From contig CBDFKD010000002.1 in the NCBI GenBank assembly GCA_965248695.1, forward strand, positions 3,456,001 to 3,520,000: a DNA stretch of 64,000 nt, in the 5' to 3' direction. The notes below the pieces were generated by a model. It ran no database searches and was not told where the DNA came from. It saw only the letters and a list, made by a program, of their open reading frames with translations. A program made the translations under genes and the position numbers. The DNA comes from Acidobacteriota bacterium. Lineage in GTDB: Bacteria; Acidobacteriota; UBA890; WLXD01. How positions within the stretch are numbered: the stretch's first letter is position 1; each line of letters begins with the position of its first letter. Positions 10,203-27,625 of this stretch are shown here, piece after piece.

Positions 10203-10410
10203 TGCGACCTCCGGGACCGGGCCTCGGGCAGAAAATCCGCCATCCTTTGATGCGATGCTGCCTGTTGACGGAAAGTCGAGGGTTTCTTCGGCAAATGCGA
10301 ATATAGGCTGCCTCTGGCCGAGGTTCGCCGGCCAGGCGGCCGCAGCGTGCTGGTTGCCATCGGCGGCGCACAGGCAATGATATAGCATGGTCTGTTTGGA
10401 GCGTTGAGCC

Positions 10411-11616
10411 GTGCGTAGATCCAGTTTGCGAAATCGGCGCCGCGCGGTGGTGGTTGGCACTCTGCTGGTCGCGGCGGCCGCGTATGTAGTGCTGGTCCTG
10501 CGACCTGCGATGGCCGGGTTCGCTGCCAGCAGCGACAGAGCTTCCGCACTCGCCGACGAGCTCGACGATGCACAAGCCACGGTCGCGAGCATGGACGATC
10601 TGGAAAAGTCCGGCGAGCTCCTGGCGAACCGCGCGTCCGAGATCGGCTCCAGCATCGCGCTGAATGCCGCCGGCGGCGGGCTGGCGCCGACCGTCCAGGC
10701 GCTGCTCGAGGCCGCCAACGAGACAGGGATCGAGCTGGTCGCGCTCCGCACCTCGCCGCCCCTGGACTCGGACGAAACCGCGCGACGGCTTCTGGAGTTG
10801 GAAGGCTATGCTGGGCCCAGCGACTTCGCCGAGTTCATCGCCCGGATCCAGGGTTTGCGGCTCGACGAGTTTACGTTGGACGGGGCGGCGCGCCGCGGCG
10901 ACCCGTTGCGCTTCCTGGTGCGAGCGGCGATGCCGCCGTCGGAAGATGTCGCCGAGCTGATCGCCGCCGCCGATGGAGTGGAGTCGCGCGGCCTGCCCTC
11001 CGTTTCCGACTCGCTGTTCGCCCAGCCGGCCCGCCCGCGCCCAGCGAGCCCCGAGCCCGCGCCGACCAGCACCGAGCCGGTGCTGAACCTCGTAGGGGTT
11101 TCGTCGTTCGGCGCCGGCCGTTTGGCGGTCATTGTCGAGCCGACCACAGGACGAGATCACTTCGTCATGACCGGCGGCGCTGTCGGCGGATTCGTGGTCG
11201 AGGAGATCACCGAGTCCACAGTCACCCTACGTGGCGAAGGCGGCGGACGTACGCTGGCGCTGTCCGACACGGTGGCCATCGCACCCGCCGAGGTCGAGGA
11301 CGGTGCGCCAGAAGCGCTGCCGATCGACGGGTCGACGCCGATCTACCTCGCCGCACTGGGGGTGTCGGTAATCGAGCTACCGCTCGACGCGCATGGGGCG
11401 GCGAGCGCCGACAACGAGCGGCTCTTGGTAGTGGGTCTCGACGCCGCGGATTCTCCGCTTCGCGTCGGCGACTTGCTCCGCTCAATCGGCGTCATCCCGA
11501 TCCGCAGTGTGCTGGAAGCCGCTGCCGTCCTCGCCGCCACGAGTGTCGGCACCGAGCTCGAGATAGGGCTCAAGCGCGGCAATCAGCTGCTCGCCTTGGT
11601 GATCCCGAGCCGCTGA
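10411..11616 (+). CDS. PilO/GspM-like protein apparently fused to a GspC-like/PDZ C-terminal region
   Basis: N-terminal TM, coiled coil and a PilO-like ferredoxin pattern (AANETGIELVAL...LELEG...FAEFIARIQ); Pro linker; HR-like LVGV...LAVI...EEITESTVTL; degenerate PDZ (SPLRVGDLLRSIG). First gene of the secretin operon. Confidence 0.55.
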   Translation: MRRSSLRNRRRAVVVGTLLVAAAAYVVLVLRPAMAGFAASSDRASALADELDDAQATVASMDDLEKSGELLANRASEIGSSIALNAAGGGLAPTVQALLEAANETGIELVALRTSPPLDSDETARRLLELEGYAGPSDFAEFIARIQGLRLDEFTLDGAARRGDPLRFLVRAAMPPSEDVAELIAAADGVESRGLPSVSDSLFAQPARPRPASPEPAPTSTEPVLNLVGVSSFGAGRLAVIVEPTTGRDHFVMTGGAVGGFVVEEITESTVTLRGEGGGRTLALSDTVAIAPAEVEDGAPEALPIDGSTPIYLAALGVSVIELPLDAHGAASADNERLLVVGLDAADSPLRVGDLLRSIGVIPIRSVLEAAAVLAATSVGTELEIGLKRGNQLLALVIPSR

Positions 11617-11862
11617 CAAGCACCGTCGAGAGCACCGCCACCGCCAGGCCACGCGTTGCGTGGGGCATCAAGATACTTCATCCCTTTCCGCCACCGCCCC
11701 CTAGCTTTGGCCAGAGCACCATGGAACATTCGTGAGGTGACGGTTGGGGCACCGTGACGATGCGCTATTCGCGCGAGTTCGGGGGGACAATCGAACGTGG
11801 GGTGCGGAGCTCCGTCGGGTGTGAAGTGCGTCATCACACGCTCATCCGAAGCGGAGCGATAA

Positions 11863-13146
11863 GTGTCGGGGGGCATCGCCGGCCCGCATAGGGCGCCGGA
11901 TGTAGTCGTGTTGCCGCCGGACGGCGCGGCTGCCAGGGCCGCCGGACTGCAGTTACCCGGCGTTCCGCTCGCCGAGGCCTTCGTCAAGAGCATGGCGTTG
12001 CCTAACGTCGATGAGCCGGTGTTGCGCGAGGTCGTCCGGCTTCAGGTCAAACACGGCCTGAACGGGGCCCGGGGCAAGCGCGTGATCTCGTGCCGGCGGC
12101 GCGATGCCGGCGACCGTACGCTCGTGCTGATCACTGCCGTGGTTCGGCAGCGCGGCCGAGTTGCATTGCCGCGGCCGTGGTTGCTTTTCGGCGCTGCGGC
12201 ACGCGCAGGGCTCGTCGACCGCGGGAAGAACTCGCTACTCGTTTATCGCGACGACGCGCAGCTTGTCGCCGTGTCCATCGAGGAGGGCGAGATTGTCTTC
12301 GTACACGGATTCGGTGCCGACGCCAACCTGCGGCAGCAGCTCGAGGTGTCAGCGCAGGCGGTCTACCTCCGTCGCCGTAGGCGGCCACTGAAGATCGATC
12401 GCGTCATCGTTTGCGAGGGGGCCGATCAGCTACGCGAGCCTGCCGCCAGCTTGGCCGGCGCCGAGGTCATCAGTGTCTTCTGGCTACAGCTCGCCGTCCA
12501 TATCGCCGGCGCCGCAGTGCCCGAAACGGATGCGCGGGTCGATCCGGCGCGCTGGTTGCCGATACCGGTACATTCCCGCGCGATTGTCGCGGCACCCAGC
12601 GCAATGCTCGTGGTGCAAGAAATCCCGCGGATTGCCCGCTCCCTGCTAGCGGGGCGGCCACGCCGCGGGTTCCAGAGGCTGGTAGCGGCCGCCGTGGTCG
12701 CGGCGGCGATTCCGTTGCTCGCGCTTCAGGTCATGACCAGCCTGGCGGCCAGGCGCAGCGCCGGCTTGGAGGACGCGCTGCAGCGGCTTCAGCCTCAGGT
12801 ACAGACCGTGCAGGCGCTGCGTTCACGCAACGCGGAGCTCACGCAGCTCACTACGGGCACCGGCGCCGCCATCATGGCAGGTCGTGATTGGCATCGCCTG
12901 ATGGCGGCCCTCGACACGTCGCGCCCAGACGGACTTCGCCTCTCGAGCCTGGAGGGCGCGCGCGCCGAGCGGTGGAGCATTGCCGGCCGGGCCGACGACG
13001 TCCGAATGGTCGGTGAGTTCGTCGACCGCCTGTCGGCCACTGGACTGGTGGCCGACGTGAATCTCACACTCGAAGAGGAGCCTGCCGGCGGCACCGGATT
13101 CGCGGTCGGATTCCTCATGGGCCCCAAGGAGCGGCTCGATCCATGA
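11863..13146 (+). CDS. PilM/PilN (GspL)-like alignment protein
   Basis: Cytoplasmic N-region, one TM, coiled coil and a PilN-like end (LDTSRPDGLRLSSL...IAGRA...FVDRLSATG); overlaps the secretin start (ATGA). Confidence 0.6.
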   Translation: MSGGIAGPHRAPDVVVLPPDGAAARAAGLQLPGVPLAEAFVKSMALPNVDEPVLREVVRLQVKHGLNGARGKRVISCRRRDAGDRTLVLITAVVRQRGRVALPRPWLLFGAAARAGLVDRGKNSLLVYRDDAQLVAVSIEEGEIVFVHGFGADANLRQQLEVSAQAVYLRRRRRPLKIDRVIVCEGADQLREPAASLAGAEVISVFWLQLAVHIAGAAVPETDARVDPARWLPIPVHSRAIVAAPSAMLVVQEIPRIARSLLAGRPRRGFQRLVAAAVVAAAIPLLALQVMTSLAARRSAGLEDALQRLQPQVQTVQALRSRNAELTQLTTGTGAAIMAGRDWHRLMAALDTSRPDGLRLSSLEGARAERWSIAGRADDVRMVGEFVDRLSATGLVADVNLTLEEEPAGGTGFAVGFLMGPKERLDP

Positions 13147-14987
13147 GACGACGGAAAGCCAACGTGAGCCTCGTGGCGGCGCTCTTGTTGACGATGCTCT
13201 CGTCGGCCGCGCTGCCGGCCAGCGGGCAAACTGCCGCGGCCGCATCGCAAGATCAGACGCAACAGGCGGTGACACCGGATCCCGAGCCACTTCCCGAACA
13301 ACAGCCCGCCGAGTGCATCCAGTTCGATTTTCGCGGCGCCAGCTTGCGCACGGTGGTTCGTTTCGTTGCCCAGTTGAGCAATCTTGTCCCGATCATCCCG
13401 GAAAGCCTCGTCGGCGTGGTGACCATCTCGTCACCGCGTCGGCTCAGCCTGTCCGATGCGCAGCGGGTATTGGGTGCTGTGCTCGACGCGTACGAGTTCA
13501 CCCTCTTGCGGGACGACCACTTCCTCCGTGTGGTCCCCAAAGCGGTGTCGATGCAGCGCTCGGTCGATCTGTTCTACGGCCGTGATCTCGACGCGATCCC
13601 CGCCGACGATCGCATCATCACGCAGATCATCCCAGTCGAGAACGCTCGCGCCGCCGGCATCGTCGATTCGTTGACGCCGCTGATCTCGACCACGGGCCAC
13701 ATGTTCGTCAGCGCCGAGAACAACATGCTCGGGATCACCGACTCGGCATCGAACGTGCGCCGTCTGCTCGGGATCATCCTGCACCTCGACGTCGAGCGTG
13801 CCGCGGTGAGCTCAACGTACACCCGCGTCTACAACATCCACTATCTCAAGGCCGAGGAAGTGGCCACGGCGCTTCAGGCCGTGTTCGGTGGCGGCACCGC
13901 AGCCACCACCACCGGATCCGCGGGCACCGCAGCCGCCACTACCGCGCCGGCCGCCGCCCCGCCGAGCACCCTCGGCTCCCTCGCCGCGGTGGCCAATCCG
14001 GCGACACCGGCGGCTCAGTCGACTGCTTCGCCGGCTTCTGTCCCAAACCAGGGGACTCGCATCACACCGGTGATCGCCGCCAACGCCATCATCGTTACGG
14101 CGATGCGCGAGATACACCGCCAAATCGAGGATACGTTGCTCGCTCTCGACACGCGGCGGCGGCAGGTGTTGATCGAAGTGAAGATCATCGAGGGGACTCT
14201 GTCACGCGAGACTTCTACCGGCATTAACCTGCTGGAGTTCATCTTCGCCACCGGAGCCGGCCTGCACACGATCACCGGCGGTGCCGACACCTCTAGTCCA
14301 TATGTCAACTACACGCTCAACTCCAATCAGCTCGATGTGGTGCTCACCGCAGCCGCAGCGGATGACACTATCCGGATCCTCTCGGCGCCACACGTGCTCA
14401 CATCTGACAATCAGCAGGCGCGCATCGTCGTAGCGCAAGAAGAGCCCATACTGACCTCGGTAACCGACCTGGCAGCGCAGACAGCGGGGCCGCGAACCGT
14501 GAGCTCCTTCGAATACCGCGACGTCGGTATCGAGCTCACGGTCACCCCGCGTATCAATGAAGACCGCGACGTCGATCTCGAGGTCGACTTCAACATCACC
14601 AGCCTGCTGGCGAACGTCGCATTGCCGGGCGAGACCTTCGCGCCCCGGATCGGCAAGCGCGAGGGATCCAGCAAGGTGACCGTGATGGACGGCAGCACGC
14701 TGGTCATCGGCGGGCTGATGAAGGACGACTATCGAGATCAGCGCCAGAAGGTGCCGATCCTGGGAAGCATTCCCATAATCGGGCGCTTGTTCTCGACCGT
14801 GCGCCAGGTCAAAGATCAGACCGAGTTGCTGGTGCTGGTCACGCCGCGGGTGGCAGAAACCGACGCGGAAGGTGTGCGCCTCACCCGTGAGGCCGAAGAA
14901 GGGATGGAGGCTCGCTTCCCGGACGCGCGGACGAAGAGCGAGTCTGAAACCGCCAAGGAGCAACAACCCCAGGAGCAGCAACGCTGA
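13143..14987 (+). CDS. gspD: Secretin, GspD type
   Basis: N0 (QFDFRGASLRTVVRFV), N1 and N3 repeats; QVLIEVKIIE, LSAPHVLTSDNQQA, YRDVGIELTVTPRIN, KVPILGSIPIIGRLF and ELLVLVTPRV motifs. Confidence 0.9.
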   Translation: MRRRKANVSLVAALLLTMLSSAALPASGQTAAAASQDQTQQAVTPDPEPLPEQQPAECIQFDFRGASLRTVVRFVAQLSNLVPIIPESLVGVVTISSPRRLSLSDAQRVLGAVLDAYEFTLLRDDHFLRVVPKAVSMQRSVDLFYGRDLDAIPADDRIITQIIPVENARAAGIVDSLTPLISTTGHMFVSAENNMLGITDSASNVRRLLGIILHLDVERAAVSSTYTRVYNIHYLKAEEVATALQAVFGGGTAATTTGSAGTAAATTAPAAAPPSTLGSLAAVANPATPAAQSTASPASVPNQGTRITPVIAANAIIVTAMREIHRQIEDTLLALDTRRRQVLIEVKIIEGTLSRETSTGINLLEFIFATGAGLHTITGGADTSSPYVNYTLNSNQLDVVLTAAAADDTIRILSAPHVLTSDNQQARIVVAQEEPILTSVTDLAAQTAGPRTVSSFEYRDVGIELTVTPRINEDRDVDLEVDFNITSLLANVALPGETFAPRIGKREGSSKVTVMDGSTLVIGGLMKDDYRDQRQKVPILGSIPIIGRLFSTVRQVKDQTELLVLVTPRVAETDAEGVRLTREAEEGMEARFPDARTKSESETAKEQQPQEQQR

Positions 14988-16792
14988 GCGACGCGACCAG
15001 GTCAGCGCCAACGGCGGGCCCCGGAGGGCGACCCGCCGGCTTCCCGAGGCGTCGGATCAACGGCCCGGCCGAGGCCCTTCTGATGGCGGCGCTTGTCGCC
15101 AGCGCATGTGGTGGTCCGTTCGATCTCACCGCGCCGACCGGCGCGATCCTCGTGATCAGCGCCAACCCGACTACGATTGCGCTGTTCACCGGTCGCTCGA
15201 CGATCACCGCGCGCATTACCAAGCCCGACGGTAGCGCCGCTCTCGACGGTACGCTTGTCACCTTCACCACGACGACCGGCACAATCGCGGAGCGTGTCGA
15301 GACCAAGGGCGGCGTAGCCAAGGCGGAGCTCGTCGCCGGCGACCGTCCGGGCACCGCCGACGTTACCGCTACCTCTGGCACCATCGTCGACTCCAGCAAC
15401 GAAGTAACGCCAAAATCGGCGACGGTCTCGGTGCAAATCGGCAGTACGCCGAATACGGTCAACATCGTCGCCAATCCCACGGAGTTACCGCCCATCGGCG
15501 GGGTTTCGTTGATCACCGCAGTGGTGACGGATGCCAGTGCCGAACCGGCAGCCGATGTCCCCGTGACGTTCTCCACCACGGCGGGCGAGCTCAACCCGGA
15601 TGGCGCCGTGGTTCGAACGGACGGCAACGGCAAGGCAAAGGTACGCCTGCGGACAACCGTGTCGGCGACGGTCACCGCAACGGTCGGCAGCCTGACCGTC
15701 GTCTCGGTAACCGTCGACGTCAACTCATCGCCGCCAGTTCCGGTAATCAGTTTTTCGCCGACGACGCCCAGCGCCGGGAAAGAGGTCCGCTTCAGTGCTA
15801 TCGGAACCACGGCGGCGAGCTCGATCCGGCGGTACGACTGGGAGTTTGGCGACGGCGCGGCCGCAACCGGGGTGGCCGCTGCGAACGTCTATGCGAACGC
15901 CGGCGACTTCGTAGTCACCTTGTCGGTCACCGACACCAACGGCCTGGTCGGAGTCGCGACCGCGCCGATCACGGTCGGACAGGGCGAGCCGCCCATCGCG
16001 AGCTTTACTTTCTCGCCCGGCGTCGCCACGGCCGAAGAACCAGTGTTATTCGACGGCTCGAGCTCAACCGATCCGGACGGCCAGATCGTCGAATATTCCT
16101 GGGGCTGGGGCGACGGCACGAGCGGCGACGTCGGTCCGTTGCCAACCGCTCAGCACATTTTCTCGGATCCTGGTAGCTACACCGTGCAGCTTACGGTTCG
16201 CGACGATCAGGGACTCAGCGGCAGCGCCAGTCAGACCGTCACGGTACCGGGCGGCAACGAACCGACGGCGAGCTTCACGTTCTCCCCGAGCGCGCCGGCG
16301 CTGAACCAAACTGTGACTTTCGACGGCGGCTCTTCGACCGACGAAGACGGAACGATCGTGCAGTATTCGTGGAATTTCGGCGACGGTACCAGTCCCGCAG
16401 TCTCGGCCTCGCCCATCGCCACCCACGCGTTCACTCAGAACGGTTCGTTCACCGTGACGCTCACCGTCACAGACAACGAGGGGCTAACGGGCACCGCGAG
16501 CAGCAGCGTCACCTTGGGCGGGAGCCAAGCGCCCACAGCCAGCTTCACCTTCTCGCCAAGCAAGCCGAGTATCGGACAAACGGTGACCTTCAACAGCTCC
16601 GCATCGTTCGACCCGGACGGCCAGATCGTGGAGTACACCTGGGACTGGGGCGACGGGAGCAGCCCGGTCGTGACTTCCAGCGCCACGACCCAGCACTCGT
16701 TCTCTGCCGCCGGCACCTTCAGCGTGAAGCTCACGGTGCGGGACAACGACGGGTTGGTCGGCGATGTCACCGTTTCGGTGACCGTGAGCTGA
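14984..16792 (+). CDS. Lipoprotein with two Big_1-like Ig domains and four PKD domains (candidate adhesin or cargo)
   Basis: Lipobox LVASA-C; Thr/Val-rich Ig repeats; four WxF/WGDG PKD repeats. Start is either ATG 15083 or the in-frame CTG 14984 that overlaps the gspD stop and follows AGGAG. Confidence 0.82.
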   Translation: MSDATRSAPTAGPGGRPAGFPRRRINGPAEALLMAALVASACGGPFDLTAPTGAILVISANPTTIALFTGRSTITARITKPDGSAALDGTLVTFTTTTGTIAERVETKGGVAKAELVAGDRPGTADVTATSGTIVDSSNEVTPKSATVSVQIGSTPNTVNIVANPTELPPIGGVSLITAVVTDASAEPAADVPVTFSTTAGELNPDGAVVRTDGNGKAKVRLRTTVSATVTATVGSLTVVSVTVDVNSSPPVPVISFSPTTPSAGKEVRFSAIGTTAASSIRRYDWEFGDGAAATGVAAANVYANAGDFVVTLSVTDTNGLVGVATAPITVGQGEPPIASFTFSPGVATAEEPVLFDGSSSTDPDGQIVEYSWGWGDGTSGDVGPLPTAQHIFSDPGSYTVQLTVRDDQGLSGSASQTVTVPGGNEPTASFTFSPSAPALNQTVTFDGGSSTDEDGTIVQYSWNFGDGTSPAVSASPIATHAFTQNGSFTVTLTVTDNEGLTGTASSSVTLGGSQAPTASFTFSPSKPSIGQTVTFNSSASFDPDGQIVEYTWDWGDGSSPVVTSSATTQHSFSAAGTFSVKLTVRDNDGLVGDVTVSVTVS

Positions 16793-16822
16793 TCGGCGTC
16801 GGCGACGCGCACGACCGGGGGG

Positions 16823-17085
16823 CTAGTGGCCTATAACAGATGATCGTTGCATGTCGTGGTGGCGAAATGGGTCCGGATGCCAAGCGCGACGACGAGACGA
16901 TGCTGGCGTCATCGTGCAGGAGGAGAGACGCCGCCATCGCCCGTAACTCCCACTTGCCCGAAGGGTCACGCCAGACCCATCACAGTCTCACCACGGCCTA
17001 CTCACATCGCTTTCCTCACCGCGCCTTGATCTCAACCGCAAATCCCATCTGCGACATGCAACGATCATCTGTTACAGGCCACTAG
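16823..17085. mobile_element. MITE (non-autonomous, 263 bp) with 34-bp terminal inverted repeats bounded by CTAG
   Basis: Left 16823-16856 CTAGTGGCCTATAACAGATGATCGTTGCATGTCG; right 17052-17085 is its reverse complement with one mismatch; no transposase inside. Confidence 0.85.
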
Positions 17086-17840
17086 ATCAGCTCAGTTTGC
17101 AGCAGGTCGCGGGCGCGGCTGACACTCGTGCTCGACAACGAGCGCTCGATGAACCCACAAAGCAGCCCAATGAGTGCTGCGATCTCGGGATGCTCGACGA
17201 AGCGCCAGGTCTCCATCGGCCCGATGCCCAGCACTACGGTCTTGGTCGAGAACAGCACCCCCACAGCCAGACTGCAGACGCCGGCAAAGATCAGACGCGC
17301 CCACGGCTCGAACAAACTCCCGCCGCCGATCTGCACATCGTCCAGCCGCAGCCTCAATCGCCGTGCCCCGAAAGACAGCCAGGTGCCCGCCTGACACCCG
17401 ACCCACACGAATAGGAAGTTGGTCCACTGCTGGTGCTCGCGAAAGAGCGTGTTCATCAGCAGCGCGATTACCAGCGGCGGCACGCCCAGGATCAGCGCGC
17501 GCACGCCGAGCCGCAGCAAATAGTCGTTCTTGAGACCGTTCATCACTTGGGCAGTCAGCTGATCTCTGAAGACCTCCAGCGCCCTCCTCGCCAACCCGGG
17601 TTGGGCGTTGTCGCCCTCGAGGCCCGCTTTGGCGAGCACGAATAGCTCGCGGCGGTAGCGATCGAAATCCTCACCTGACGACGAGAATACCGCACGGATC
17701 GCACGCAGCATGCGATTGATCTCGTCCATTAGACCGAGCTGACTCTCCGGTACCGCGGCGATATCGCCACCGCGCATCTCGAAATGAATCTCGGCCGGTG
17801 CCGAATCATCGACCGTAACAATGAAAGCGCCTCTAGACAT
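17082..17840 (-). CDS. Hypothetical membrane protein (about 4 C-terminal TM segments)
   Basis: GGAGAAG RBS before ATG 17840; helical N-domain followed by hydrophobic segments; last gene of the minus-strand pilus operon. Confidence 0.75.
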   Translation of the reverse strand: MSRGAFIVTVDDSAPAEIHFEMRGGDIAAVPESQLGLMDEINRMLRAIRAVFSSSGEDFDRYRRELFVLAKAGLEGDNAQPGLARRALEVFRDQLTAQVMNGLKNDYLLRLGVRALILGVPPLVIALLMNTLFREHQQWTNFLFVWVGCQAGTWLSFGARRLRLRLDDVQIGGGSLFEPWARLIFAGVCSLAVGVLFSTKTVVLGIGPMETWRFVEHPEIAALIGLLCGFIERSLSSTSVSRARDLLQTELI

Positions 17841-17864
17841 TGACTTCTCCAAATCGATCGTTGG

Positions 17865-18305: not shown

Positions 18306-18315
18306 GGATACCTCG

Positions 18316-19137: not shown

Positions 19138-19155
19138 GGTACCTCCCAGCAGGCC

Positions 19156-20262
19156 CTAGCCTGGTCCAGAGGAAGCCTGGAACATCGGTAGATAAACCGA
19201 TGCCAGGATCACCGCAACGACAACACCCATGCCGACGACGATGAGTGGCTCCATGAGCCCAGTGACGCGTTCGACCTGAACCTTGACGCGCTCGCGGTAG
19301 AACTTGGCAATGTGCGCCAGCGACTCCGGCAGCGTTCCCGACTGCTCACCGATGCGCACCATGCTGATCACGAGGTCGGTGTAGAGCAACGTTTGTGTGA
19401 GCGCGTCGGCCAACGAGCTACCGCGTGCCACCCGGGCGTTCACGCTCTTGAGGGCTCCGGCGTACACGGCGTTGTTGTTGAACATTTCACGTACTGCGCG
19501 GAGGGCCTCCAACAATGGCATGCCACTGCGGAGCAAGAGCGAGAGGTTGGAGGTGAACTTCTCCATTGCCGTCTGGATAACCAGATCGCCGACAACCGGG
19601 GTCGCGATTAGGAGTACGTCCTTGACGTTGCGGCCGTTCGGTGTGCGCACGTAGCGTCGCAACAGGAACACGCCGACAATCGTGCCGCCGATCATCTTGA
19701 AGCCGTTGGCCTGCAGAAACTCCGACAGACCGACGACCCACTGAGTGATCAGCGGTAGTTCACCGCCCATGTCCTGAAAGAACTCGGCGAACGTCGGCAC
19801 CACCTTCCACAGCATGACGACGACACACAGTACCGAGATTCCACCGAGCACCGCGGGGTAGGTGAGCGCACCGATGACATCGCTGCGGATCTGCTTGGCG
19901 TTGCGGATGGTGTCGTTGAGCTCGCGAAGCACGAACGACAGCTGCCCAGAGAGCTCGCCGACGCGAAGCACCTCGATCCACTGGGGCTCGAAGGCCTTGG
20001 GGTGCGCCGCCGCAGCCTCTGCAAACGATCGCCCGGACGCCACCTGACTCGCAACGATGCGAAGGGCGTCTCGGAGGTGATCGCTCTCGGTTTGCGCCGC
20101 CGAGATCTGCAAAGCTCCGAGCAGCGGCGTACCCGAATCGAGGAGGATGCTGAGCTGCTCGAAGAATGTGATCTTGTCGTCGACGGTGGCCTTCTTGTGG
20201 CGCTTCGAGCGCACCCTGGCCAGCGCCTGGAAGCGCGAAGTCCCAGCGGCTGCGGTCGCCAT
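19156..20262 (-). CDS. pilC: Type IV pilus/T2SS inner-membrane platform protein PilC/GspF
   Basis: QLSILLDSGTPLLGAL, GELSGQL, ALTYP, GEQSGTL and MEPLIVV...YLPMF motifs. Confidence 0.92.
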   Translation of the reverse strand: MATAAAGTSRFQALARVRSKRHKKATVDDKITFFEQLSILLDSGTPLLGALQISAAQTESDHLRDALRIVASQVASGRSFAEAAAAHPKAFEPQWIEVLRVGELSGQLSFVLRELNDTIRNAKQIRSDVIGALTYPAVLGGISVLCVVVMLWKVVPTFAEFFQDMGGELPLITQWVVGLSEFLQANGFKMIGGTIVGVFLLRRYVRTPNGRNVKDVLLIATPVVGDLVIQTAMEKFTSNLSLLLRSGMPLLEALRAVREMFNNNAVYAGALKSVNARVARGSSLADALTQTLLYTDLVISMVRIGEQSGTLPESLAHIAKFYRERVKVQVERVTGLMEPLIVVGMGVVVAVILASVYLPMFQASSGPG

Positions 20263-21989
20263 CAGTGCCCCCCCAACGTAACTCGAAGTGCCTCTTCAAG
20301 GCTGGTGAGGCCGGCTGTTGCCTTTGCCAGGGCATCCTGCTCGAGGCTTTCCATCCCATCGGCACGGGCGGCATTACGAATCACGCTCAGTTTCTCGCCA
20401 GCGGTGATCATCTCGCTGAGCTCGTCGGTGATTCGGACTACTTCGAAGACACCCACGCGACCGGCGTAGCCGGATTGCCGGCACTGATCGCAACCCACCG
20501 GCTTGTAGAGCACCGCATCGCTCTCCAATTGATGCTTCTCGATCATGTCCTCGGGGGGTTGGTAGGCCTCCTTGCAGTCCTTGCAGAGGCGGCGAATGAG
20601 CCGCTGCGCTTCGATGAGCCGCAGGGTCGAAGCGATCAGGAAGGGCTCGATGCCCATGTCGGCCAGCCGGTCGATCGACGACATGGCGTCGTTGGTGTGC
20701 AGCGTCGACAGGACCAGGTGACCGGTTAGCGCCGCGCGAAGGCAGATCTGTGCCGTCTCGTGATCGCGCACCTCACCAACCATGATGACGTCGGGGTCTT
20801 GGCGCAAGAAGGCGCGCAGCACGCGCTTGAAATCGAGGCCGATGGCCGACTTCGTTTGCACTTGGCCGATCCCCGGGTACTTGTACTCCACCGGGTCTTC
20901 GACGGTGACGATGTTGACCTCCGGCGAGACGAGCATGTTGAGCGTGGCGTAGAGCGTTGTCGACTTGCCGCTGCCGGTGGGACCGGTAACGAAGATGAGG
21001 CCGTGCGGCGAGTGCGCCGCCACGTCGAAGTCCGCCAGCTGGCGCTCGCGGAAACCGAGTGCCGCGAGATCGGTCGGCGCAGCCGACTTGTTGAGCACCC
21101 GCATGACCATCTTCTCGCCGAAGACGGTCGGCACTGTCGACACGCGCCAGTCGATGTCGTTCGTGCCCAACTTCGTCGTGAAGGCACCATCCTGCGGCAC
21201 GCGCTTCTCTGCGATGTCCATCTTCGACAGTACCTTGAAGCGCGATACCAGCGGAACGAAGAGCGACTTGTGCGGTGGGGTCATCTCGATCAACTTGCCG
21301 TCGATGCGAAACCGAACCTTGACGAAATCGGGATACTGCTCCAAGTGCACGTCGCTGGCGCGTTCGTCGATTGCAGAAGTGAGGATGAAGTTCGCCAGTC
21401 GGATGACCTGGTTCTCGCGGCTCTTCGAAACCGGCTTGTCGAGGTCGAGGACCTCCTCGGCGTCCTCGTCATCTTCTTCCTCTTCTTCTTCTTCTTCCTC
21501 GACCCCCTCGCTGGCCATCTCGCGGACCATGTCACGGGCGCCCCAGAGCTCATCGAGCGCATGCCCGATGTCCTCGTACGAGGCCACCGCGATGGTGACC
21601 ATGAGGCCGGTGTACAGCCGCGTCTCCTGCAGGAGGTAAGGATCGGTCGGATCAACGACAGCCACATGCACCTGCAGGCCGTCGCTGCGAACCGGAATGA
21701 GACGACGCTCGCGAGCGAACTGCTCCGAGACCAACGCGCAGAGCGTCTCGTCCGGCTTCCCTTCGGCAAAGAGGTCGGTAACCAGGGGAACCTGGAAGCG
21801 CTCTGCGTAGACTTCGGCCAACCGGGTAGGCGCGAGGGATGTCGACTCGACCAGCGCTTCTTCCAGCGCAATCGATTTGCGCGACTGAATCTGCTCGACC
21901 TTGCTTGCCTGCTCGTTGGATATTTCGCCGCTATCCAGCAGCGCCGAGATCAGTGGAGCGCGCGCAAAGGAGGTTTCGGTATCGATCAT
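20262..21989 (-). CDS. pilB: Extension ATPase PilB/GspE
   Basis: ASDVHLE, MDIAEKRVPQDG, Walker A GPTGSGKS, TVEDPVEY, LRQDPDVIMVGEVRD, TGHLVLSTLHTN, tetracysteine CKDC/CDQC. Confidence 0.95.
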   Translation of the reverse strand: MIDTETSFARAPLISALLDSGEISNEQASKVEQIQSRKSIALEEALVESTSLAPTRLAEVYAERFQVPLVTDLFAEGKPDETLCALVSEQFARERRLIPVRSDGLQVHVAVVDPTDPYLLQETRLYTGLMVTIAVASYEDIGHALDELWGARDMVREMASEGVEEEEEEEEEDDEDAEEVLDLDKPVSKSRENQVIRLANFILTSAIDERASDVHLEQYPDFVKVRFRIDGKLIEMTPPHKSLFVPLVSRFKVLSKMDIAEKRVPQDGAFTTKLGTNDIDWRVSTVPTVFGEKMVMRVLNKSAAPTDLAALGFRERQLADFDVAAHSPHGLIFVTGPTGSGKSTTLYATLNMLVSPEVNIVTVEDPVEYKYPGIGQVQTKSAIGLDFKRVLRAFLRQDPDVIMVGEVRDHETAQICLRAALTGHLVLSTLHTNDAMSSIDRLADMGIEPFLIASTLRLIEAQRLIRRLCKDCKEAYQPPEDMIEKHQLESDAVLYKPVGCDQCRQSGYAGRVGVFEVVRITDELSEMITAGEKLSVIRNAARADGMESLEQDALAKATAGLTSLEEALRVTLGGH

Positions 21990-22037
21990 CGTTCGACGTC
22001 AGCGCTGAAGGAAGGGGCGTCGGCAAAAGGCAACGGA

Positions 22038-22078
22038 GGCGCGGTGACGGATCCAAGTAGACCCTCCACCACCGCGCC
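22038..22078 (-). terminator. Stem-loop 3' of major pilin copy 1
   Basis: GGCGCGGTG...CACCGCGCC 9-bp stem; related to the stem-loop after pilin copy 2. Confidence 0.55.
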
Positions 22079-22097
22079 CCATGAGGAGTCGCCTCAA

Positions 22098-22541
22098 TCA
22101 AGTGCCCATCGGGTTGATGGAGTCCAGCTCGTTGATGCTGCTGCTGTCGGCGTCGTAGCCGTCTTCGGTGAAAACGACCGTGTACTCGCCGTAACCGGCC
22201 GACGCACCCTTACGGGTCAGCGTCTGTGACCAGGAATCCTCGAGTGAACCGGTGCCGCCCGCCACGATCGTGCTGATGGTGAAGTACTTCGGCTCGCTGA
22301 GCTCGATGTCCAGCACCGCCGGATCATTTCCGTAGGTCGACTGGCGCGCGTGGTAGCGCTCCTGCGAGGCGCGGATCGAGCTCAAGTAGTTGAAGGCCTC
22401 CGAGGCCTTGGAACGCTCGACCGAGTCACGGAACCGCGGCACGGCGAAAGCCGCCAGGACGCCGATGATGATGATCACCACCGCCAACTCCACCAGCGTG
22501 AAGCCTTCCTGGCGCTTGGCGTTGAGACGTAAGCTGCTCAT
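22098..22541 (-). CDS. Type IV major pilin, copy 1
   Basis: QEG|FTLVELAVVIIIIGVLAAFAVP (G14, P22); 134-aa mature protein, no Cys; own promoter. Confidence 0.93.
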   Translation of the reverse strand: MSSLRLNAKRQEGFTLVELAVVIIIIGVLAAFAVPRFRDSVERSKASEAFNYLSSIRASQERYHARQSTYGNDPAVLDIELSEPKYFTISTIVAGGTGSLEDSWSQTLTRKGASAGYGEYTVVFTEDGYDADSSSINELDSINPMGT

Positions 22542-22618
22542 GTGTTTTCCCTCCGTTTCCAGACCGACTCATCATGAGTTATCTGAAGTTGTCAAAAGTT
22601 AGTAATAATCTAGATGAG

Positions 22619-22635
22619 AGCAATTAACATGCCAG
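22619..22635 (-). promoter_or_regulatory. sigma54 (-24/-12) promoter of pilin copy 1
   Basis: Minus strand CTGGCATGTTAATTGCT matches TGGCAY-N5-TTGCW, embedded in an AT-rich tract. Confidence 0.85.
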
Positions 22636-22741
22636 AACTTATTAGAAGTCATTTAAACGTTTCTACGTCCTACTGAGACCACCTGTGTCGCGTTTGTCGC
22701 GGACAACTGGACCCTCCTTCGGCACGTTTAGTGGGGTTCGC

Positions 22742-22781
22742 TGTCTCAGTTCGGCGCCAACGGGTGTCTCAGTTCGAGACC
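22742..22781. promoter_or_regulatory. Candidate enhancer (UAS) sites for pilin copy 1
   Basis: Direct repeat TGTCTCAGTTCG at 22742 and 22765; the second extends into the palindrome GTCTC-N5-GAGAC; about 109 and 132 bp from the -24 GG. Confidence 0.6.
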
Positions 22782-22825
22782 GAGTCGCAAACTGGCGCGC
22801 TCAGACCAGCGTCCGCTGCAGAGCG

Positions 22826-23830
22826 TCAGTTGGGGAGCTTCAGGGTCAGCTTCGCGCCCTGGCGCCGCACGTCGATATTCAATGGCTGGCCCTTCGGGGC
22901 TGCTTGGAGAACCGCGCGCGCCTCATCGAGCGTGCTCACTGGCTTACCGTTGACCGCCAGCAGGAGATCGTCGGGCTCAAGGCCGGTTAGGCCGAGCGCC
23001 GCTCCGGTCGGGTCCGCCGGTTCGGGCACCGCCACGGCCCCTAGGCCAGGGATCAAACTGGACAGTCCGGGCACTAACGCGAGTACCCCTGGAAGTGCCG
23101 CCGGCAACCCGGTCAGCGCGGGCACAGATGGCTCACCAGCCAGTACCGGATCGGGATCAAGTGCGACCATTGCGTTGTCCAACTCTTGGACCTCGGAGAA
23201 CTGGAGGCGAGCCTCTCCGTCGGTCGCTCGCAGAACGACCCTCATGGCATCGATGGAAGAGACGAATGCGTCGCGTACTTTGTCGCCCCGACGGACGATC
23301 GCATCGACACCCTCCAGGTCATCGCCCACCATCGCCCAGCGCTCGCCACCCACTTCCGAAAGCCCCACCAACCGTAGCCCGGGCATTTCGACCGGCGGCA
23401 AGGGCACGAGGGGCGCCTTCTTCTTTGTAGGCGGCGGACCGAGATAACGCGGCAGCGTTCGTATCGGGGCCGCGCTGCTCTCATCTTCGACAGCCGTCAG
23501 TACTTCGTGGTCCTCTTCTTCTTCTTCTTCTTCTTCTTCCTGCTCTGCGCTACTTGTAGGCGCGCCTTCGGTCAGAAGATCGCGACCTGTACGGATCCGC
23601 TTACCCTTTCGGGTATCGACAATGCCATCGTCCTCCGGCAGCGGAAACGGGCCCCAAACGCCGTCAAGATCGATGGCGTCCGGCAGCTCGACCGGCGGCG
23701 GCAACGGCCACGCATCGGCCCCCCCTGACTCATCCGTCCAACCCCCGTCGCCAGCCAGTGCCGACCAGCATAGATAAATCGAGACGGCAAAGGCCGTTCC
23801 GGCGACCACGAGCTGCTGGTTGACCTGCAT
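22826..23830 (-). CDS. GspC-like protein with HR-like domain and C-terminal PDZ
   Basis: N-terminal TM, acidic/Pro linker, LRLVGLSEVGGERWAMV...VRRGDKV...VSSIDAMRVVL, PDZ GLEPDDLLLAVNGKPV. Confidence 0.65.
   Translation of the reverse strand: MQVNQQLVVAGTAFAVSIYLCWSALAGDGGWTDESGGADAWPLPPPVELPDAIDLDGVWGPFPLPEDDGIVDTRKGKRIRTGRDLLTEGAPTSSAEQEEEEEEEEEDHEVLTAVEDESSAAPIRTLPRYLGPPPTKKKAPLVPLPPVEMPGLRLVGLSEVGGERWAMVGDDLEGVDAIVRRGDKVRDAFVSSIDAMRVVLRATDGEARLQFSEVQELDNAMVALDPDPVLAGEPSVPALTGLPAALPGVLALVPGLSSLIPGLGAVAVPEPADPTGAALGLTGLEPDDLLLAVNGKPVSTLDEARAVLQAAPKGQPLNIDVRRQGAKLTLKLPN
23516..23539 (-). repeat. (GAA)8 in-frame trinucleotide repeat encoding poly-Glu
   Basis: (TTC)8 on the plus strand inside the GspC-like gene. 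Confidence 0.85.
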
Positions 23831-23833
23831 CGC

Positions 23834-24391
23834 CTACCTCATCAATGCCGCGATCGACACCGTGCTCAGAAGAGTGCCGTTGTTGTCCTGTGAGCGGATC
23901 ACGATAACCCGGCAGAAGACCTCGTTGTATTCGAGCCAACCCAAGAACTTGACGAGGTTCGTGTACGGACCCTCGACCTCGACCCTGACAATGAGCCCGG
24001 TGTAGCCGGCGAACTTGATCCGGTCCTGTTTGCGGGGCTCGAAGCTCCGTAGCTTCAACCCGGCCAACCGCATGCCGTTCATGAGATGTTCGGACCAGAA
24101 ATTGACGTCTGCCTCTTCGGGCAATCGCGACTCGTAGATCTCGAGATACGTGCGCAGTGTCACGATCTCTTCGACCAGCGAGCCGCGCTCCTGAAGCCGC
24201 TCCAGTTCTTTCTGCCGCTTGGCGATGCCGCCTTCCAGCGGCCAGTAGACGAGGGCCACCGCGGCCAGGGCAACCAAGCTGAGCACGATGACCCGCAGCT
24301 TGCGGGGATCGCGAATGTATGGATCCAACGCCTTGAGTTGTGCTTGGATCGCCGAGCTCGACCCTCCTTTGCTGACCGGTTGGAACCCCAT
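23834..24391 (-). CDS. PilO/GspM-like protein
   Basis: Single TM, coiled coil, RLPEEADV...GLKLRSFEP...VEVEGPYTNLVKFLGWLE (PilO pattern); start ATG 24391. Confidence 0.75.
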   Translation of the reverse strand: MGFQPVSKGGSSSAIQAQLKALDPYIRDPRKLRVIVLSLVALAAVALVYWPLEGGIAKRQKELERLQERGSLVEEIVTLRTYLEIYESRLPEEADVNFWSEHLMNGMRLAGLKLRSFEPRKQDRIKFAGYTGLIVRVEVEGPYTNLVKFLGWLEYNEVFCRVIVIRSQDNNGTLLSTVSIAALMR

Positions 24392-24408
24392 GGTGCGACT
24401 CTCTCTCG

Positions 24409-25911
24409 CTATCGCGGCTGACAGACGATCGAGTAGCCGCTCGTCTCGGTGAAGCCCTCGCGGCGCCACTGCACCTCGGTAAGCTCAATGATCGGGAAAT
24501 ACTCGCCCACCGCCGAAGCACGCAGAGCCTCAAGGGCGTTATCAACGCCGTCAGGGACGGCGCCCCCGGGTCCGAGCGGTGCGGCTTCACTAATCAACAG
24601 ATAGCGATCGCCGAACTCCTTCTTTTGCTTGCGCGCCCATAGCGAATCCTCGGCCGTGATGGCGTTTACCCAGCTGTCGAGCGGCAAGGTGTCGGGGATG
24701 TCTGCAAGCAGCGGCGTCCAGGTCAGGCCGCCGGCCAGGTAGTCGGACATCGGAGTCACCGATTTCTTGAGCTCCTTGGCTTCGATCTTCAGTTGCGTAT
24801 TGGACAATGACTGGGCCCACTCCACCTGCTGCTGACGGATCATCGCCATACTCAGCTGGCCGTCGAGCGCAATCAGCTGAAAGCCCAAGACAGCTCCCAG
24901 CAACGCCGTAGCGCCAACCATCGCGACTGTCTCAGTCCAGGGCAAGGTCAGGAGGATCGATGGCGGGGGCTGGATCGAGCGCGCCAAGCTCAGGGCCGGC
25001 GCCGAAGACAGCGCGCCGAGGGCGAGCCCTTCTGCGATAGCCGCCGCATCGAGCGCCCGGTCGCCGCTTTGCTCGAGGTCCAGTTCCATGAGAGCCGAGA
25101 GCCGAGCCACGGTCTCTGCGTCGGCTGGCCCCTGGAGGATGAAGCGCGTCGGGGGTCCGGAGCCGATCTTCGAAACTGCTACGGTCGTCAACCGCACCAC
25201 GGCGCCAACGAGTGCATCGAGCCAGCCGTCGTGGTTGCGCGGAATCTCGTCCCATGCCAACGGCGTGCGGCCGCGCGACAACGCCGCGATGCAGTGACGC
25301 TCGCCCATCCAAACGCGAATCTCGGCCGCGCTCCCTTTCGGGGCGACCTCGCGGTAAGCGACCCGTAACGCCGCGGCGGCGGCCAGCTCGCATCGAGCCC
25401 GCCGCGCGCCCTCCGTGCCAACGTGTCGCAGTAAGCCACGCACGTCCGCCTCTTGGGCGGCTGCGACCAACAGATACGATGTCTTGGCGACGCTCACCTC
25501 GATGCGGTCCGATAACACGGTGCTCGATCCGGTTTTGTCCCCCTCGATATAAGCGCCCAGTGAGCCACCGCCCGCAGTTATCTCGTCCTTGCGCTCTGCC
25601 TCCAGCGCCACGAAGTAGCCCGCGCCGGCGTTCAACCCCACCGCGTAGCCGATGCGTGCCTGGTTGATTGCTTCGAACATCCGACGGATTCGGGCGATGT
25701 AATGCGCCAGCCTCGGCTGCGCGACCTCATCCTCGTCTGGCGTTGCCTCGGGCTCCTCGGGCGGCGGCACCTTACTCGGAGCGATTTCGGTGTCCCGCAC
25801 GCGAGCACCGAAGGGTGTCCGTACTGCCACCGCGCGGTGCATCTCTTCGCCGTCGACGTAGTAGCCGTAGGCGCGCCTCAACTCCATTCTCAGCAACGCC
25901 GAGACGCTCAT
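24409..25911 (-). CDS. PilM/PilN (GspL)-like fused alignment protein
   Basis: Large cytoplasmic domain (YLLVAAA, AIAEGLALG), one TM, then PilN-like WTPLLADIPDTLPLDSWVNAI; AAGGAG RBS before ATG 25911; directly upstream of the PilO-like gene. Confidence 0.6.
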   Translation of the reverse strand: MSVSALLRMELRRAYGYYVDGEEMHRAVAVRTPFGARVRDTEIAPSKVPPPEEPEATPDEDEVAQPRLAHYIARIRRMFEAINQARIGYAVGLNAGAGYFVALEAERKDEITAGGGSLGAYIEGDKTGSSTVLSDRIEVSVAKTSYLLVAAAQEADVRGLLRHVGTEGARRARCELAAAAALRVAYREVAPKGSAAEIRVWMGERHCIAALSRGRTPLAWDEIPRNHDGWLDALVGAVVRLTTVAVSKIGSGPPTRFILQGPADAETVARLSALMELDLEQSGDRALDAAAIAEGLALGALSSAPALSLARSIQPPPSILLTLPWTETVAMVGATALLGAVLGFQLIALDGQLSMAMIRQQQVEWAQSLSNTQLKIEAKELKKSVTPMSDYLAGGLTWTPLLADIPDTLPLDSWVNAITAEDSLWARKQKKEFGDRYLLISEAAPLGPGGAVPDGVDNALEALRASAVGEYFPIIELTEVQWRREGFTETSGYSIVCQPR

Positions 25912-26306
25912 CTCGTTGCTCCTTCGAGCTCGACAGCGCCTGCGGCGACCGCGAAGCTGCGCGGACAATCCTCTGAACGCCACCAGGCCAGCGCCTCATC
26001 GGAGACCAACCAGAGGCTCGCGGCTACGCGTTGAAACGCGACGAGCCGCTCGACGCGCTCGCCAGCGCGTACCGAGACGACCCGGCAGCTGTAGCGATCA
26101 CTGGGCGGCTGACCGGTCTTGAGCAGGTCCATGCCAACCGCGAGCACCGGACCGGAGATCGGCGCGTCGGAAGCCTCCCGGACGGAGCGCTCCTCCATGT
26201 GAAGCACCGACGACAAGCGCTGGTACGCCGCCGACCACATCATCAAGCCGACCAAAGTAAGCGCCAGCGCAGCCGGTATCGAGTAACCGTCCTCGGCGGC
26301 GAACAA
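25908..26306 (-). CDS. Minor pilin-like protein (PilX/GspK-like, lacks Glu5)
   Basis: GGAGG RBS then TTG gives MFAAEDG|YSIPAALALTLVGLMMW; non-Glu at position 5 is typical of PilX/GspK. Confidence 0.6.
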   Translation of the reverse strand: MFAAEDGYSIPAALALTLVGLMMWSAAYQRLSSVLHMEERSVREASDAPISGPVLAVGMDLLKTGQPPSDRYSCRVVSVRAGERVERLVAFQRVAASLWLVSDEALAWWRSEDCPRSFAVAAGAVELEGATR

Positions 26307-26308
26307 CG

Positions 26309-26773
26309 TCAGGCCTCCCCGAATAGCGCTTCGGGTTCTTGACCGCGAACCTCGAGCGTCAGATCCAGCCGGGTGCCGCCGGTGTCGAACTCGAGCGTCG
26401 CCACGACCCGACCGCCCGGGACGTCGGCGAAAAACTCCACATGGTCGACGTACGTCGCGACGAGGACCTCGCGCCCGTCTGGGGTTTCTCGCCACAGGCC
26501 CTGTTCACGCAACCCGTAGCTCACGGGGTCGCCGTCGATGATCAGCACCAAGACTCGGGAGTCCGCCGGCGGTACGACCACGGCGGCAAGGAGATCGGCC
26601 TGTAGGTACTCACGCGCGAGCTTCGCCTCGCGTACCAGCAGCGCCTGTGACTGCAGTCGGTTCATCCACAGCGCGATCGAACCCCAGGCGCTCGCGAAGG
26701 CCACCAGCGCAATGCTGCCGATGGTCACCGCGAGGACGAGCTCCAGTAGACCAATCCCGCGCTGCTCGCCCAT
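26309..26773 (-). CDS. Minor pilin (PilW/GspJ-like)
   Basis: QRG|IGLLELVLAVTIGSIALVAF; LQADLLAA; VSYGLREQGLWRE. Alternative start 26791. Confidence 0.75.
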   Translation of the reverse strand: MGEQRGIGLLELVLAVTIGSIALVAFASAWGSIALWMNRLQSQALLVREAKLAREYLQADLLAAVVVPPADSRVLVLIIDGDPVSYGLREQGLWRETPDGREVLVATYVDHVEFFADVPGGRVVATLEFDTGGTRLDLTLEVRGQEPEALFGEA

Positions 26774-26825
26774 TTCCGTTAGCGAATGCATGGTCCCGTG
26801 TCCTCGCCCGGATACAACAGCGACC

Positions 26826-26863
26826 GCGCCGTGACTGACGCTCGTAGACGCCGGTCACCGCGC
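26826..26863 (-). terminator. Stem-loop 3' of major pilin copy 2
   Basis: GCGCCGTGAC...GTCACCGCGC imperfect stem; shares GTGAC..GA...GTAGAC...CACCGCGC with 22038-22078. Confidence 0.5.
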
Positions 26864-26881
26864 AGCCGCAGGAGGGCCGCT

Positions 26882-27325
26882 TCAGGTGCCCATCGGGTTG
26901 ATGGAATCCAACGAGGCGATCGTGCCGTTGGTGGCGTCGTAACCGTCTTCGGTGAAGACGATCGTGTACTCACCGTAGCCGGCCGACGCGCCCTTGCGGG
27001 TCAGCGCCTGCGACCACGAGTCCTCGAGCGAACCGGTCGTACCGGGCTCGATCGTGCCGAGCGTGAAGTACTTCGGGTCGCTGAGCTTGATGTCCAAGTC
27101 GTCCGAATCGTCCGAATAGGTCGACTGGCGGGCGTGGAAACGCTCCTGTGCGGCGCGGACCGAGCTCAGGTAGTTGAAGGCCTCCGAGGCCTTGGAACGC
27201 TCAACCGAGTCGCGGAATCGCGGCACGGCGAAAGCCGCCAAGACACCGATGATGATGATCACCACCGCCAGCTCCGCCAGCGTGAAGCCTTCCTGGCGCT
27301 TGTTGTTGAGACGCAAGCTGCTCAT
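26882..27325 (-). CDS. Type IV major pilin, copy 2
   Basis: AGGAG RBS; QEG|FTLAELAVVIIIIGVLAAFAVP; 147 aa, 25 differences from copy 1 by manual alignment. Confidence 0.93.
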   Translation of the reverse strand: MSSLRLNNKRQEGFTLAELAVVIIIIGVLAAFAVPRFRDSVERSKASEAFNYLSSVRAAQERFHARQSTYSDDSDDLDIKLSDPKYFTLGTIEPGTTGSLEDSWSQALTRKGASAGYGEYTIVFTEDGYDATNGTIASLDSINPMGT

Positions 27326-27406
27326 GTTGCTACTCCTGGTTGTTGGAGTCGACATACCCGACTCCGCCGATCGGAGCCACTGTTGAATGTCTCCGGGCAA
27401 TGTACG

Positions 27407-27423
27407 AGCACGTTACATGCCAA
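27407..27423 (-). promoter_or_regulatory. sigma54 (-24/-12) promoter of pilin copy 2 and its operon
   Basis: Minus strand TTGGCATGTAACGTGCT (GG-N10-GC), with a very AT-rich tract upstream (27430-27517). Confidence 0.8.
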
Positions 27424-27530
27424 ACAGCGCGTTTTTACATGTTTAAATCATATATTCTATTTATTAATCACTTTTACTTATCATAACTAGCTAATTCTAA
27501 CTATTCAGATATATAATGGCCCCGTCCGCG

Positions 27531-27567
27531 AATCTCAGAACGGAGCATCCCTGTCTCGGATCGGGAC
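27531..27567. promoter_or_regulatory. Candidate enhancer (UAS) sites for pilin copy 2
   Basis: AATCTCAGAACGGAGC (27531) and TGTCTCGGATCGGGAC (27552), about 110 and 131 bp from the -24 GG, matching copy 1 in sequence and spacing. Confidence 0.55.
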
Positions 27568-27625
27568 GGCTCCTGTGCAACGTCGGCGCTATCTGCGCTC
27601 CGGGCGGCCGGCTATCAGAGAGACT

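Follow-up and report, generated by a model that had tools for sequence, protein, structure and literature searches.

A type IV filament island in an Acidobacteriota genome that probably joins a planctomycete-type pilus operon to a T2SS-like outer module

A stretch of 64,000 nucleotides from an Acidobacteriota bacterium (contig CBDFKD010000002.1; referred to below as the window) carries two convergent operons for type IV filament proteins, with one motor, one platform and one secretin, and with two sets of alignment proteins and two major pilins. Exchange of secretins among type IV filament systems is considered rare, and the pairing of GspC with GspD is considered species-specific. The locus raises the question of whether the pilus motor of one operon uses the foreign GspD of the other, or whether two partial systems lie side by side without cooperation.

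Gene content and borders of the island

All genes listed in the initial annotation were present as ORFs with Pfam or NCBIfam matches, arranged in two convergent halves. The features are as follows.

10411..11616, plus strand: putative GspM/PilO-GspC(HR)-PDZ fusion, 401 aa (weak GspM, E 0.0012, GspC_delta, E 0.0013, and PDZ matches)
11863..13146, plus strand: GspL-type PilM-PilN fusion, 427 aa (Atlas, AF2 model)
13143..14987, plus strand: GspD-type secretin with N0, N and secretin domains (domain profiles; small clade, 43-51% identity)
15083..16792, plus strand: Big/PKD lipoprotein of a type found in the host's family, where similar ones follow other secretins
16823..17085, no strand: MITE-like element of 263 bp, bearing inverted repeats of 34 nt, where the two operons meet
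17082..17852, minus strand: membrane protein that fits no known family and has no counterpart in the related loci
17865..18305, minus strand: DUF5658 membrane protein, a recurring neighbour of the planctomycete-type family
18316..18744, minus strand: E/H-like minor pilin (profiles, related loci)
18741..19137, minus strand: V/I-like minor pilin with a frameshift near 19055 in the present assembly
19156..20262, minus strand: PilC/GspF platform (profile matches)
20262..21989, minus strand: extension ATPase of the PilB type (tree), with intact Walker A/B, Asp box, His box and Cys4 motifs
22098..22541, minus strand: major pilin 1 (profile matches)
22620-22634, minus strand: sigma-54 -24/-12 motif of pilin 1, the only perfect match in the window
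22826..23830, minus strand: GspC-type protein with TM, HR and PDZ, the only PDZ-bearing member among the C proteins of its family
23834..24391, minus strand: PilO/GspM-like protein (profiles)
24409..25911, minus strand: PilM-PilN (GspL-type) fusion (profiles)
25908..26306, minus strand: X/K-like minor pilin without E5 (sequence, homologues)
26309..26791, minus strand: W/J-like minor pilin (profiles, related loci)
26882..27325, minus strand: major pilin 2, 83% identical to pilin 1
27408-27422, minus strand: sigma-54 -24/-12 motif of pilin 2, with one mismatch, behind an AT-rich stretch

In the plus operon all four ORFs are intact, those of the GspL-type protein (plus L), the secretin and the lipoprotein are closely coupled, and GspE, GspF and pseudopilins are absent. 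The secretin scored 325 bits against the GspD profile TIGR02517, narrowly missing its cut-off of 351, compared with 177 bits for PilQ and with 127 bits for MshL, where 250 are required. The protein at 11863 scored 0.96 against PilN clusters in the Atlas, and its AF2 model (pLDDT 76) matched PilM (E 2.6e-6) and the periplasmic domains of GspL/XcpY. The lipoprotein gene may start at a CTG near 14984. The earlier calls of a PilM/N-like protein, a GspD-type secretin and a PKD lipoprotein were borne out, while the fold proposed for the protein at 10411 was left to its weak profile matches because the structure could not show it (single-sequence AF2, pLDDT 36). This protein scored 0.76-0.78 in the Atlas against PilO/PilP fusions, its N-terminus matched best a T2SSM-positive gene of G007, a genome from the same family as the host, and no homologue was found among the 7,999 candidates scored. 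The profile matches and the match to the G007 gene tentatively suggest an M-C-PDZ protein (plus C).

The minus operon contained every gene that had been called, with the V/I-like pilin frameshifted. The frameshift was also present in runs X1 and X2, while the X3 and X4 contigs of the same sample lack four bases there and keep the frame intact. The ATPase scored 588 bits against TIGR02538, under the cut-off of 676; binding of c-di-GMP was considered for it and rejected, the RLG motif being absent from the N-terminus. The major pilins scored 39-40 bits against the GspG profile TIGR01710 (cut-off 89), and their best PDB matches were T4a pilins, ranked above PulG. A conductive e-pilus was likewise set aside, since position 27 is not aromatic, though the aromatic content averages 12%. 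As had been noted, PilT, PilP and a prepilin peptidase are missing from the island; two PilT-size ATPases, one prepilin peptidase, three further extension ATPases and three other secretins are encoded elsewhere in the host genome.

The major pilins had also been described as sigma-54-driven. Motifs do stand upstream of both, but the window as a whole shows no enrichment of the motif (18 matches, 12.5 expected). An upstream motif was present in 4 of 54 pilin copies, compared with 40 of 2700 control windows, and those four are the two pairs from Acidobacteriota only, namely those of the island and of a Thermoanaerobaculia genome; the host's native pilA also has the motif. Variant clusters in single contigs affect both promoters, and one variant drops a G of the -24 element at pilin 2.

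The two operons form one island at 10302..27612 (about 17.3 kb), bordered by the upstream region of a PadR gene and by the stop of an SLC13 transporter gene. It is missing at the same site in four of four genomes of the same genus (G001-G004), in which the flanks lie 17-26 bp apart and the DNA left of 10301 is followed by the SLC13 gene that ends at 27626. With the flanks this close in the congeners, both operons occupy a single site. One gain would be the simplest account, with loss in four congeners as the alternative. No integrase or target duplication was seen at the island, promoter and terminator scans stayed at chance level, and PADLOC returned no matches for the 3 proteins queried. An ADOP permease with a score over the cut-off adjoins the island; its family is linked to the Acidobacteriota, and together with the pilin tree it points to this phylum as the probable one of the host.

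The MITE-like element at the junction is common in the host genome, with 21 full-length matches, and its ends match; for these reasons we do not regard it as the cause of the operon fusion. An assembly chimera is unlikely, given that contigs 9000-16927, 16898-16966, 16937-17085 and 17059-20720 overlap across the junction at similar depth; all four runs behind these contigs were made on a single sample, which may be the source, and no single contig crosses the junction.

Different origins of the two operons

In order to place the minus operon, we searched with its pilin and its PilM-PilN (MN) protein. At E 1e-15 the pilin matched nothing in 40 relatives, and the MN profile was without a match in 400 further genomes of the host phylum; the pilin search yielded 30 loci, mostly labelled Planctomycetota, and the MN profile matched in 11 of 301 Planctomycetota genomes, two of which had helped to build it. 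We annotated 41 family loci, which left 36 distinct ones after 5 duplicates were dropped, on DNA of up to 20 kb each, often ended by contig edges. Relative to this family the gene order of the island is rearranged, and the pilin, MN-O-C, PilB, PilC and E/V/W/X content is kept together with a clade ATPase. The island ATPase is a deep branch of the family clade (100/100), and this clade groups with the T4aP PilBs of Neisseria, Acinetobacter and the host against the GspEs (98/91, in an unrooted tree of 26 rows out of a 62-row set). These searches and the tree assign the minus operon to a type IV filament family that occurs mainly in Planctomycetota. In the pilin tree (FastTree), two pilins from Thermoanaerobaculia are the sister group of the island pilins (99). 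The Thermoanaerobaculia genome has no clade PilC (best 35%), which indicates that such pilins can exist without their own machine.

The secretin arrangement varies within the family. Among the 23 loci that reach PilC, 14 continue with their own secretin, mostly followed by a TPR lipoprotein, seven have PilZ genes and no secretin after PilC, and one has neither. The remaining locus, G552, carries a head-to-head non-native secretin of the GspD-N0 type, a TPR protein and a second ATPase. With 8 of 23 loci lacking a secretin after PilC and a non-native one in G552, the family accepts other secretin arrangements. In the island, the native secretin and TPR lipoprotein seen after PilC in 14 of 23 relatives are absent. 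The native secretins form a clade of 14 rows with a support of 100, which excludes the island secretin.

The island secretin has seven close relatives at 43-51% identity, after which identity drops to about 35%. Together they make up a clade distinct from that of the 14 native secretins (FastTree), and the branch of the island secretin in it is not long (0.44, compared with 0.30-0.41). The ATPase and secretin phylogenies that had been proposed as a check gave two separate placements, with the T4aP PilBs for the former and in this plus-type clade for the latter. One secretin relative lies in G007 and was the only match among 10 genomes of the host's family. Its locus is IS-riddled and decayed, with the order M fragment, L fragment, IS-split GspD, MinD-like, GspE, split GspF, GspH-like and GspI-like. 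The GspE of G007 defines a clade at 52-67% identity that scores best as GspE and groups with GspE-labelled proteins (99/93). Records of this clade share contig sizes with plus-type secretins and L proteins (433068, 59417, 31970, 31850, 26407 and 27540), co-location being judged from the matching sizes. These relatives place the origin of the plus operon in a T2SS-like clade whose members are elsewhere accompanied by a GspE of their own.

This GspE is absent from the host genome, where the best candidate reaches 43.6% compared with 52-67% within the clade. No branch in its family is longer than that of plus L (1.76, median 0.8), and the plus L profile gave a full-length match in the host only among 401 genomes, 37 others matching its PilN part. 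At E 1e-25 the profile found nothing in 201 genomes of the phylum of G409 or in 301 Planctomycetota genomes, the phylum of G402, both sets containing no known positive, and metagenome scans yielded no DNA for the clade to which the secretin belongs. At other loci of the host's family, too, secretins are followed by PKD lipoproteins, and that of the island is 53% identical to a broken gene behind another secretin in G007, an indication that the unit was put together within this family. Thus the suggestion that two half-loci had been joined was well founded, as the halves differ in phylogenetic origin and yet share one island.

The other suggestion, that alternative or heteromeric alignment sets define a subtype, was not supported as far as a conserved subtype is concerned, because a second set is missing from all 25 distinct relatives of the minus operon and the relatives of the plus operon carry their own GspE. 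Each of the 25 has one MN-O-C (L/M/C-type) set, and a second set, PDZ or PilT was found in none of them within the DNA examined (at most 20 kb). The two major pilins, once taken as distinctive, are ordinary in the family, with 1-5 copies per locus. A stable two-set machine, with both L/M/C sets in one ring or alternating with the two pilins around one motor and secretin, agrees with the single motor, platform and secretin and with two intact, homologous sets that both end in HR+PDZ (the minus MN protein and plus L are homologous by profile, with an hhalign probability of 97.3 at 11% identity). However, we consider it improbable, in view of its absence from all 25 relatives, the lack of plus L matches at E 1e-25 in the 301 Planctomycetota genomes, and the normal occurrence of several pilins in single-set loci.

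The host genome (G000; 5.89 Mb, 96% complete) encodes 7 T2SSE-family ATPases, 4 secretins, 1 prepilin peptidase and rpoN. It has a canonical T4aP, with pilMNOPQ and with pilB-pilT-pilC beside a sigma-54 two-component pair and pilA, and by our reading of its ORFs also a T2SS-like and an MSH-like locus; the island is its fourth type IV filament system. The plus operon could be an accessory outer module for a T2SS-like or MSH-like host motor, for instance for export of the PKD lipoprotein, with the minus operon acting separately. The three further extension ATPases, the other secretin loci and the PKD lipoproteins behind secretins at other host-family loci would suit this explanation, but none of those ATPases falls in the GspE group of the plus clade, each already has a secretin locus, and the plus operon arrived with the minus operon and not with those loci, and we consider it improbable. 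As to whether the plus half pairs with another ATPase in the genome, no member of its native GspE clade is present, and the host's other motors may be partners.

A weightier alternative is that a T2SS-like remnant was joined by a planctomycete-type operon in a donor and that the two do not cooperate, the pilins being assembled by the host T4aP or leaving through a host secretin while the island decays in part of the population. We give this explanation its weight because the frameshifted V-like pilin, the promoter variants clustered in strain contigs and the long plus L branch are signs of decay; the decayed G007 relative, the Thermoanaerobaculia sister pilins without a clade PilC (best 35%) and the complete host T4aP also fit it. 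It remains somewhat doubtful, since all four plus genes are intact, the secretin branch is not long, both halves were retained through transfer into one site, and other contigs of the same sample are free of the frameshift.

The GspC proteins and the island secretin

Within the planctomycete-type family, a GspC-like HR+PDZ occurs in the GspC-type protein of the minus operon (minus C) alone. The C profile of the family matches the GspC HR structure 2LNV (E 1.6e-4). Among the sequences compared, minus C is also the best match of the plus HR+PDZ (29%). When the HRs of the two island proteins were aligned, they scored 14-17 bits, no higher than with unrelated GspCs (19-21 bits). A swap of HR+PDZ from plus C into minus C is unsupported on this ground.

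Modelling of the M/N-O-C proteins with the secretin N0 had been proposed, and the pair of minus HR and N0 was run. The complex model scored 0.67, compared with 0.02 for the best of 3 controls; the runs showed 100% contact agreement and a partner pLDDT of at least 82. The docking mark is reached by 116 of 157 solved pairs and by 2 of 215 mismatched pairs. Because the docking resembles the complex of GspC HR with GspD N0 that has already been solved (PMC3169554), which the model may simply reproduce, we take it to indicate likeness and not binding. The GspC-GspD interface is reported to be species-specific in the same work (PMC3169554), which favours plus C as the partner of the island secretin.

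A possible chimeric machine and its place among known systems

The two halves are complementary, the minus operon having motor, platform and pilins without a secretin and the plus operon a secretin with L-M-C proteins without a motor. Because motor and pilus genes are joined to pore genes that have no motor, the two partial machines probably work as one. We put at about even the chance that the island encodes a single type IV filament machine of chimeric make-up, its pilus motor working with a GspD of foreign origin. Several points speak against it, namely the frameshift in the V-like pilin, the promoter variant of pilin 2, the long plus L branch, the IS-riddled G007 relative and the three other host secretins.

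In the chimeric machine, sigma-54 and a host activator, probably the PilR-like regulator beside the native pilA, would drive both major pilins, and the host's single prepilin peptidase would process the island pilins. PilB and PilC would build the filament, and the minus MN-O-C set would couple the motor to the envelope. The HR of minus C would dock on N0 of the foreign GspD, and the filament would pass through this secretin. Plus L and plus C may be the partners that the secretin had originally, either retained as a scaffold for docking or stabilisation or undergoing slow drift. A non-twitching adhesive pilus or a short endopilus would be the most likely product, with the PKD lipoprotein as candidate cargo or surface partner. 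A more far-reaching version, which we hold to be unlikely, is a working hybrid that passes a T4aP-derived filament and motor through a T2SS secretin with both L/M/C sets in one envelope cage, the secretin of the subfamily being exchangeable (native, absent, or borrowed twice independently) and the Phycisphaerae coupling assembly to c-di-GMP by PilZ-prepilin fusions.

Six types of bacterial type IV filament are distinguished by Pelicic (PMC10191384). With PF00437, PF00482 and N_methyl pilins in one locus, the island falls within the generic TFF superfamily. It resembles the type IVa pilus in its PilB-clade ATPase, the T4a pilin PDB matches, the V/W/X/E-like minor set and the sigma-54 pilin promoters. 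However, it differs from that pilus in several ways. First, PilT is absent from every family locus, and the host PilT lies elsewhere. Second, a GspD-type secretin, a TM-anchored GspC and a fused M-N take the place of PilQ, the lipoprotein PilP and separate PilM and PilN. Third, the genes form a single locus, and the family pilins are 55-70% conserved across phyla and mostly without cysteines (46 of 49). The T2SS shares with the island a GspD with N0, a GspL-type and a GspM-type protein, a GspC with HR+PDZ (GspC and GspM by weak matches) and the lack of PilT, while the island ATPase outside the GspE group, the lack of a major pilin at GspG level and the two L/M/C sets set it apart. The MSH pilus differs as well, as the island secretin is under the MshL cut-off and the MSH-like secretin and ATPase of the host lie elsewhere in the trees.

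The closest comparison is with the generic and chimeric TFF systems described by Denise et al. 2019 (PMC6668835), among them a chimeric chlamydial T2SS and a secretin co-opted by Tad. As in those systems, parts of different system types are combined and an ATPase, a platform and a major pilin are present; unlike in the chimeric ones as described there, a whole L-M-C-D module accompanies the island secretin and both source lineages can be identified. The same authors report that secretins were seldom transferred from one system to another, and they left systems of mixed type out of their reference set (PMC6668835). The main text of that paper contains no mention of Planctomycetes, and its supplementary tables may list the family as generic. 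For the M/O-C/P fusion at 10411, PilO-PilP fusions such as that of Pseudomonas putida, cited by Korotkov et al. (PMC3169554), are a precedent, although the island protein adds a PDZ and sits in a T2SS-type operon. In our literature search, neither the planctomycete-type family nor the island layout was described in titles and abstract openings, with thin coverage of subscription journals. The planctomycete-type pilus subfamily is apparently undescribed so far, and the island is probably a chimera of this subfamily with a T2SS-like outer module. No second genome with the island layout was found, and it is so far confined to a single genome.

If true, a pilus motor with a T2SS outer module would be a rare natural pore swap, one that overcomes specificity by importing the secretin together with its L-M-C partners. 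The island offers a defined set of parts in which to ask which alignment set the motor and the secretin accept, and the analysis outlines a conserved single-locus pilus family in Planctomycetota.

Strain variation and repeats in the island

We compared the window with strain contigs assembled from four sequencing runs of one sample, possibly the source of the window, and substitutions were found to be clustered in both sigma-54 pilin promoters, while the adjacent coding DNA contained very few. Eight substitutions lie at window 22595-22647 (pilin 1) and five at 27411-27450 (pilin 2), each cluster being taken from single contigs with a depth of 5-11, and one of the clustered substitutions removes a -24 G. 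The island also carries the following repeats.

Window 16823-17085, member of a MITE-like family with 34-nt inverted repeats
Window 21455-21509, poly-Glu codon run in PilB
Window 23501-23549, poly-Glu codon run in the linker of the minus-operon GspC

The MITE-like family has 21 full-length matches in the genome carrying the window (G000) and many in congeners. Position 16934, within the element, is C in the window versus T in contigs of three runs, and the C is possibly an assembly error.

Other filament genes of the genome

Filament genes were also located elsewhere in G000, on contig C2.

1723000-1749000, MSH-like locus (L001, L002)
1224149-1224871, truncated GspF gene copy adjoining an IS
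4680770-4682122, broken T2SSE ATPase gene

Besides a gene for an ExeA-like ATPase, the MSH-like locus holds six or more long pilin-like genes, and one region is interrupted by an IS.

Pilins and deep-branching members of the family

The major pilin of the family is unusually conserved across phyla from end to end and in most cases contains no cysteine, and its gene is present in 3-5 near-identical copies, in tandem or close by, in five loci (L013, L015, L016, L020 and L037). Family pilins also occur away from any machine.

L012, 8876-11008
L039, 2088-3089

The clade PilC was not found in the Thermoanaerobaculia genome searched, so assembly of the family pilins there may fall to the host T4aP. 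A second deep-branching member (L182, L203; contig C82 of genome G552) is arranged head-to-head with a gene set comprising a GspD-like secretin of non-native type, a TPR lipoprotein and an ATPase of 985 aa.

PilZ domains preceding E-like minor pilins

In five Phycisphaerae-type loci, a PilZ domain stands ahead of the prepilin cleavage site of the E-like minor pilin, and a free PilZ gene adjoins the fused gene.

L013, 18014-18868
L015, 10517-11284
L020, 16872-17657
L023, 10509-11366
L024, 6913-7710

Our literature search found no paper describing a PilZ domain in this position. The pilin may instead have a start of its own, separate from PilZ. As a fusion, the protein would release its cytoplasmic PilZ domain upon prepilin processing.
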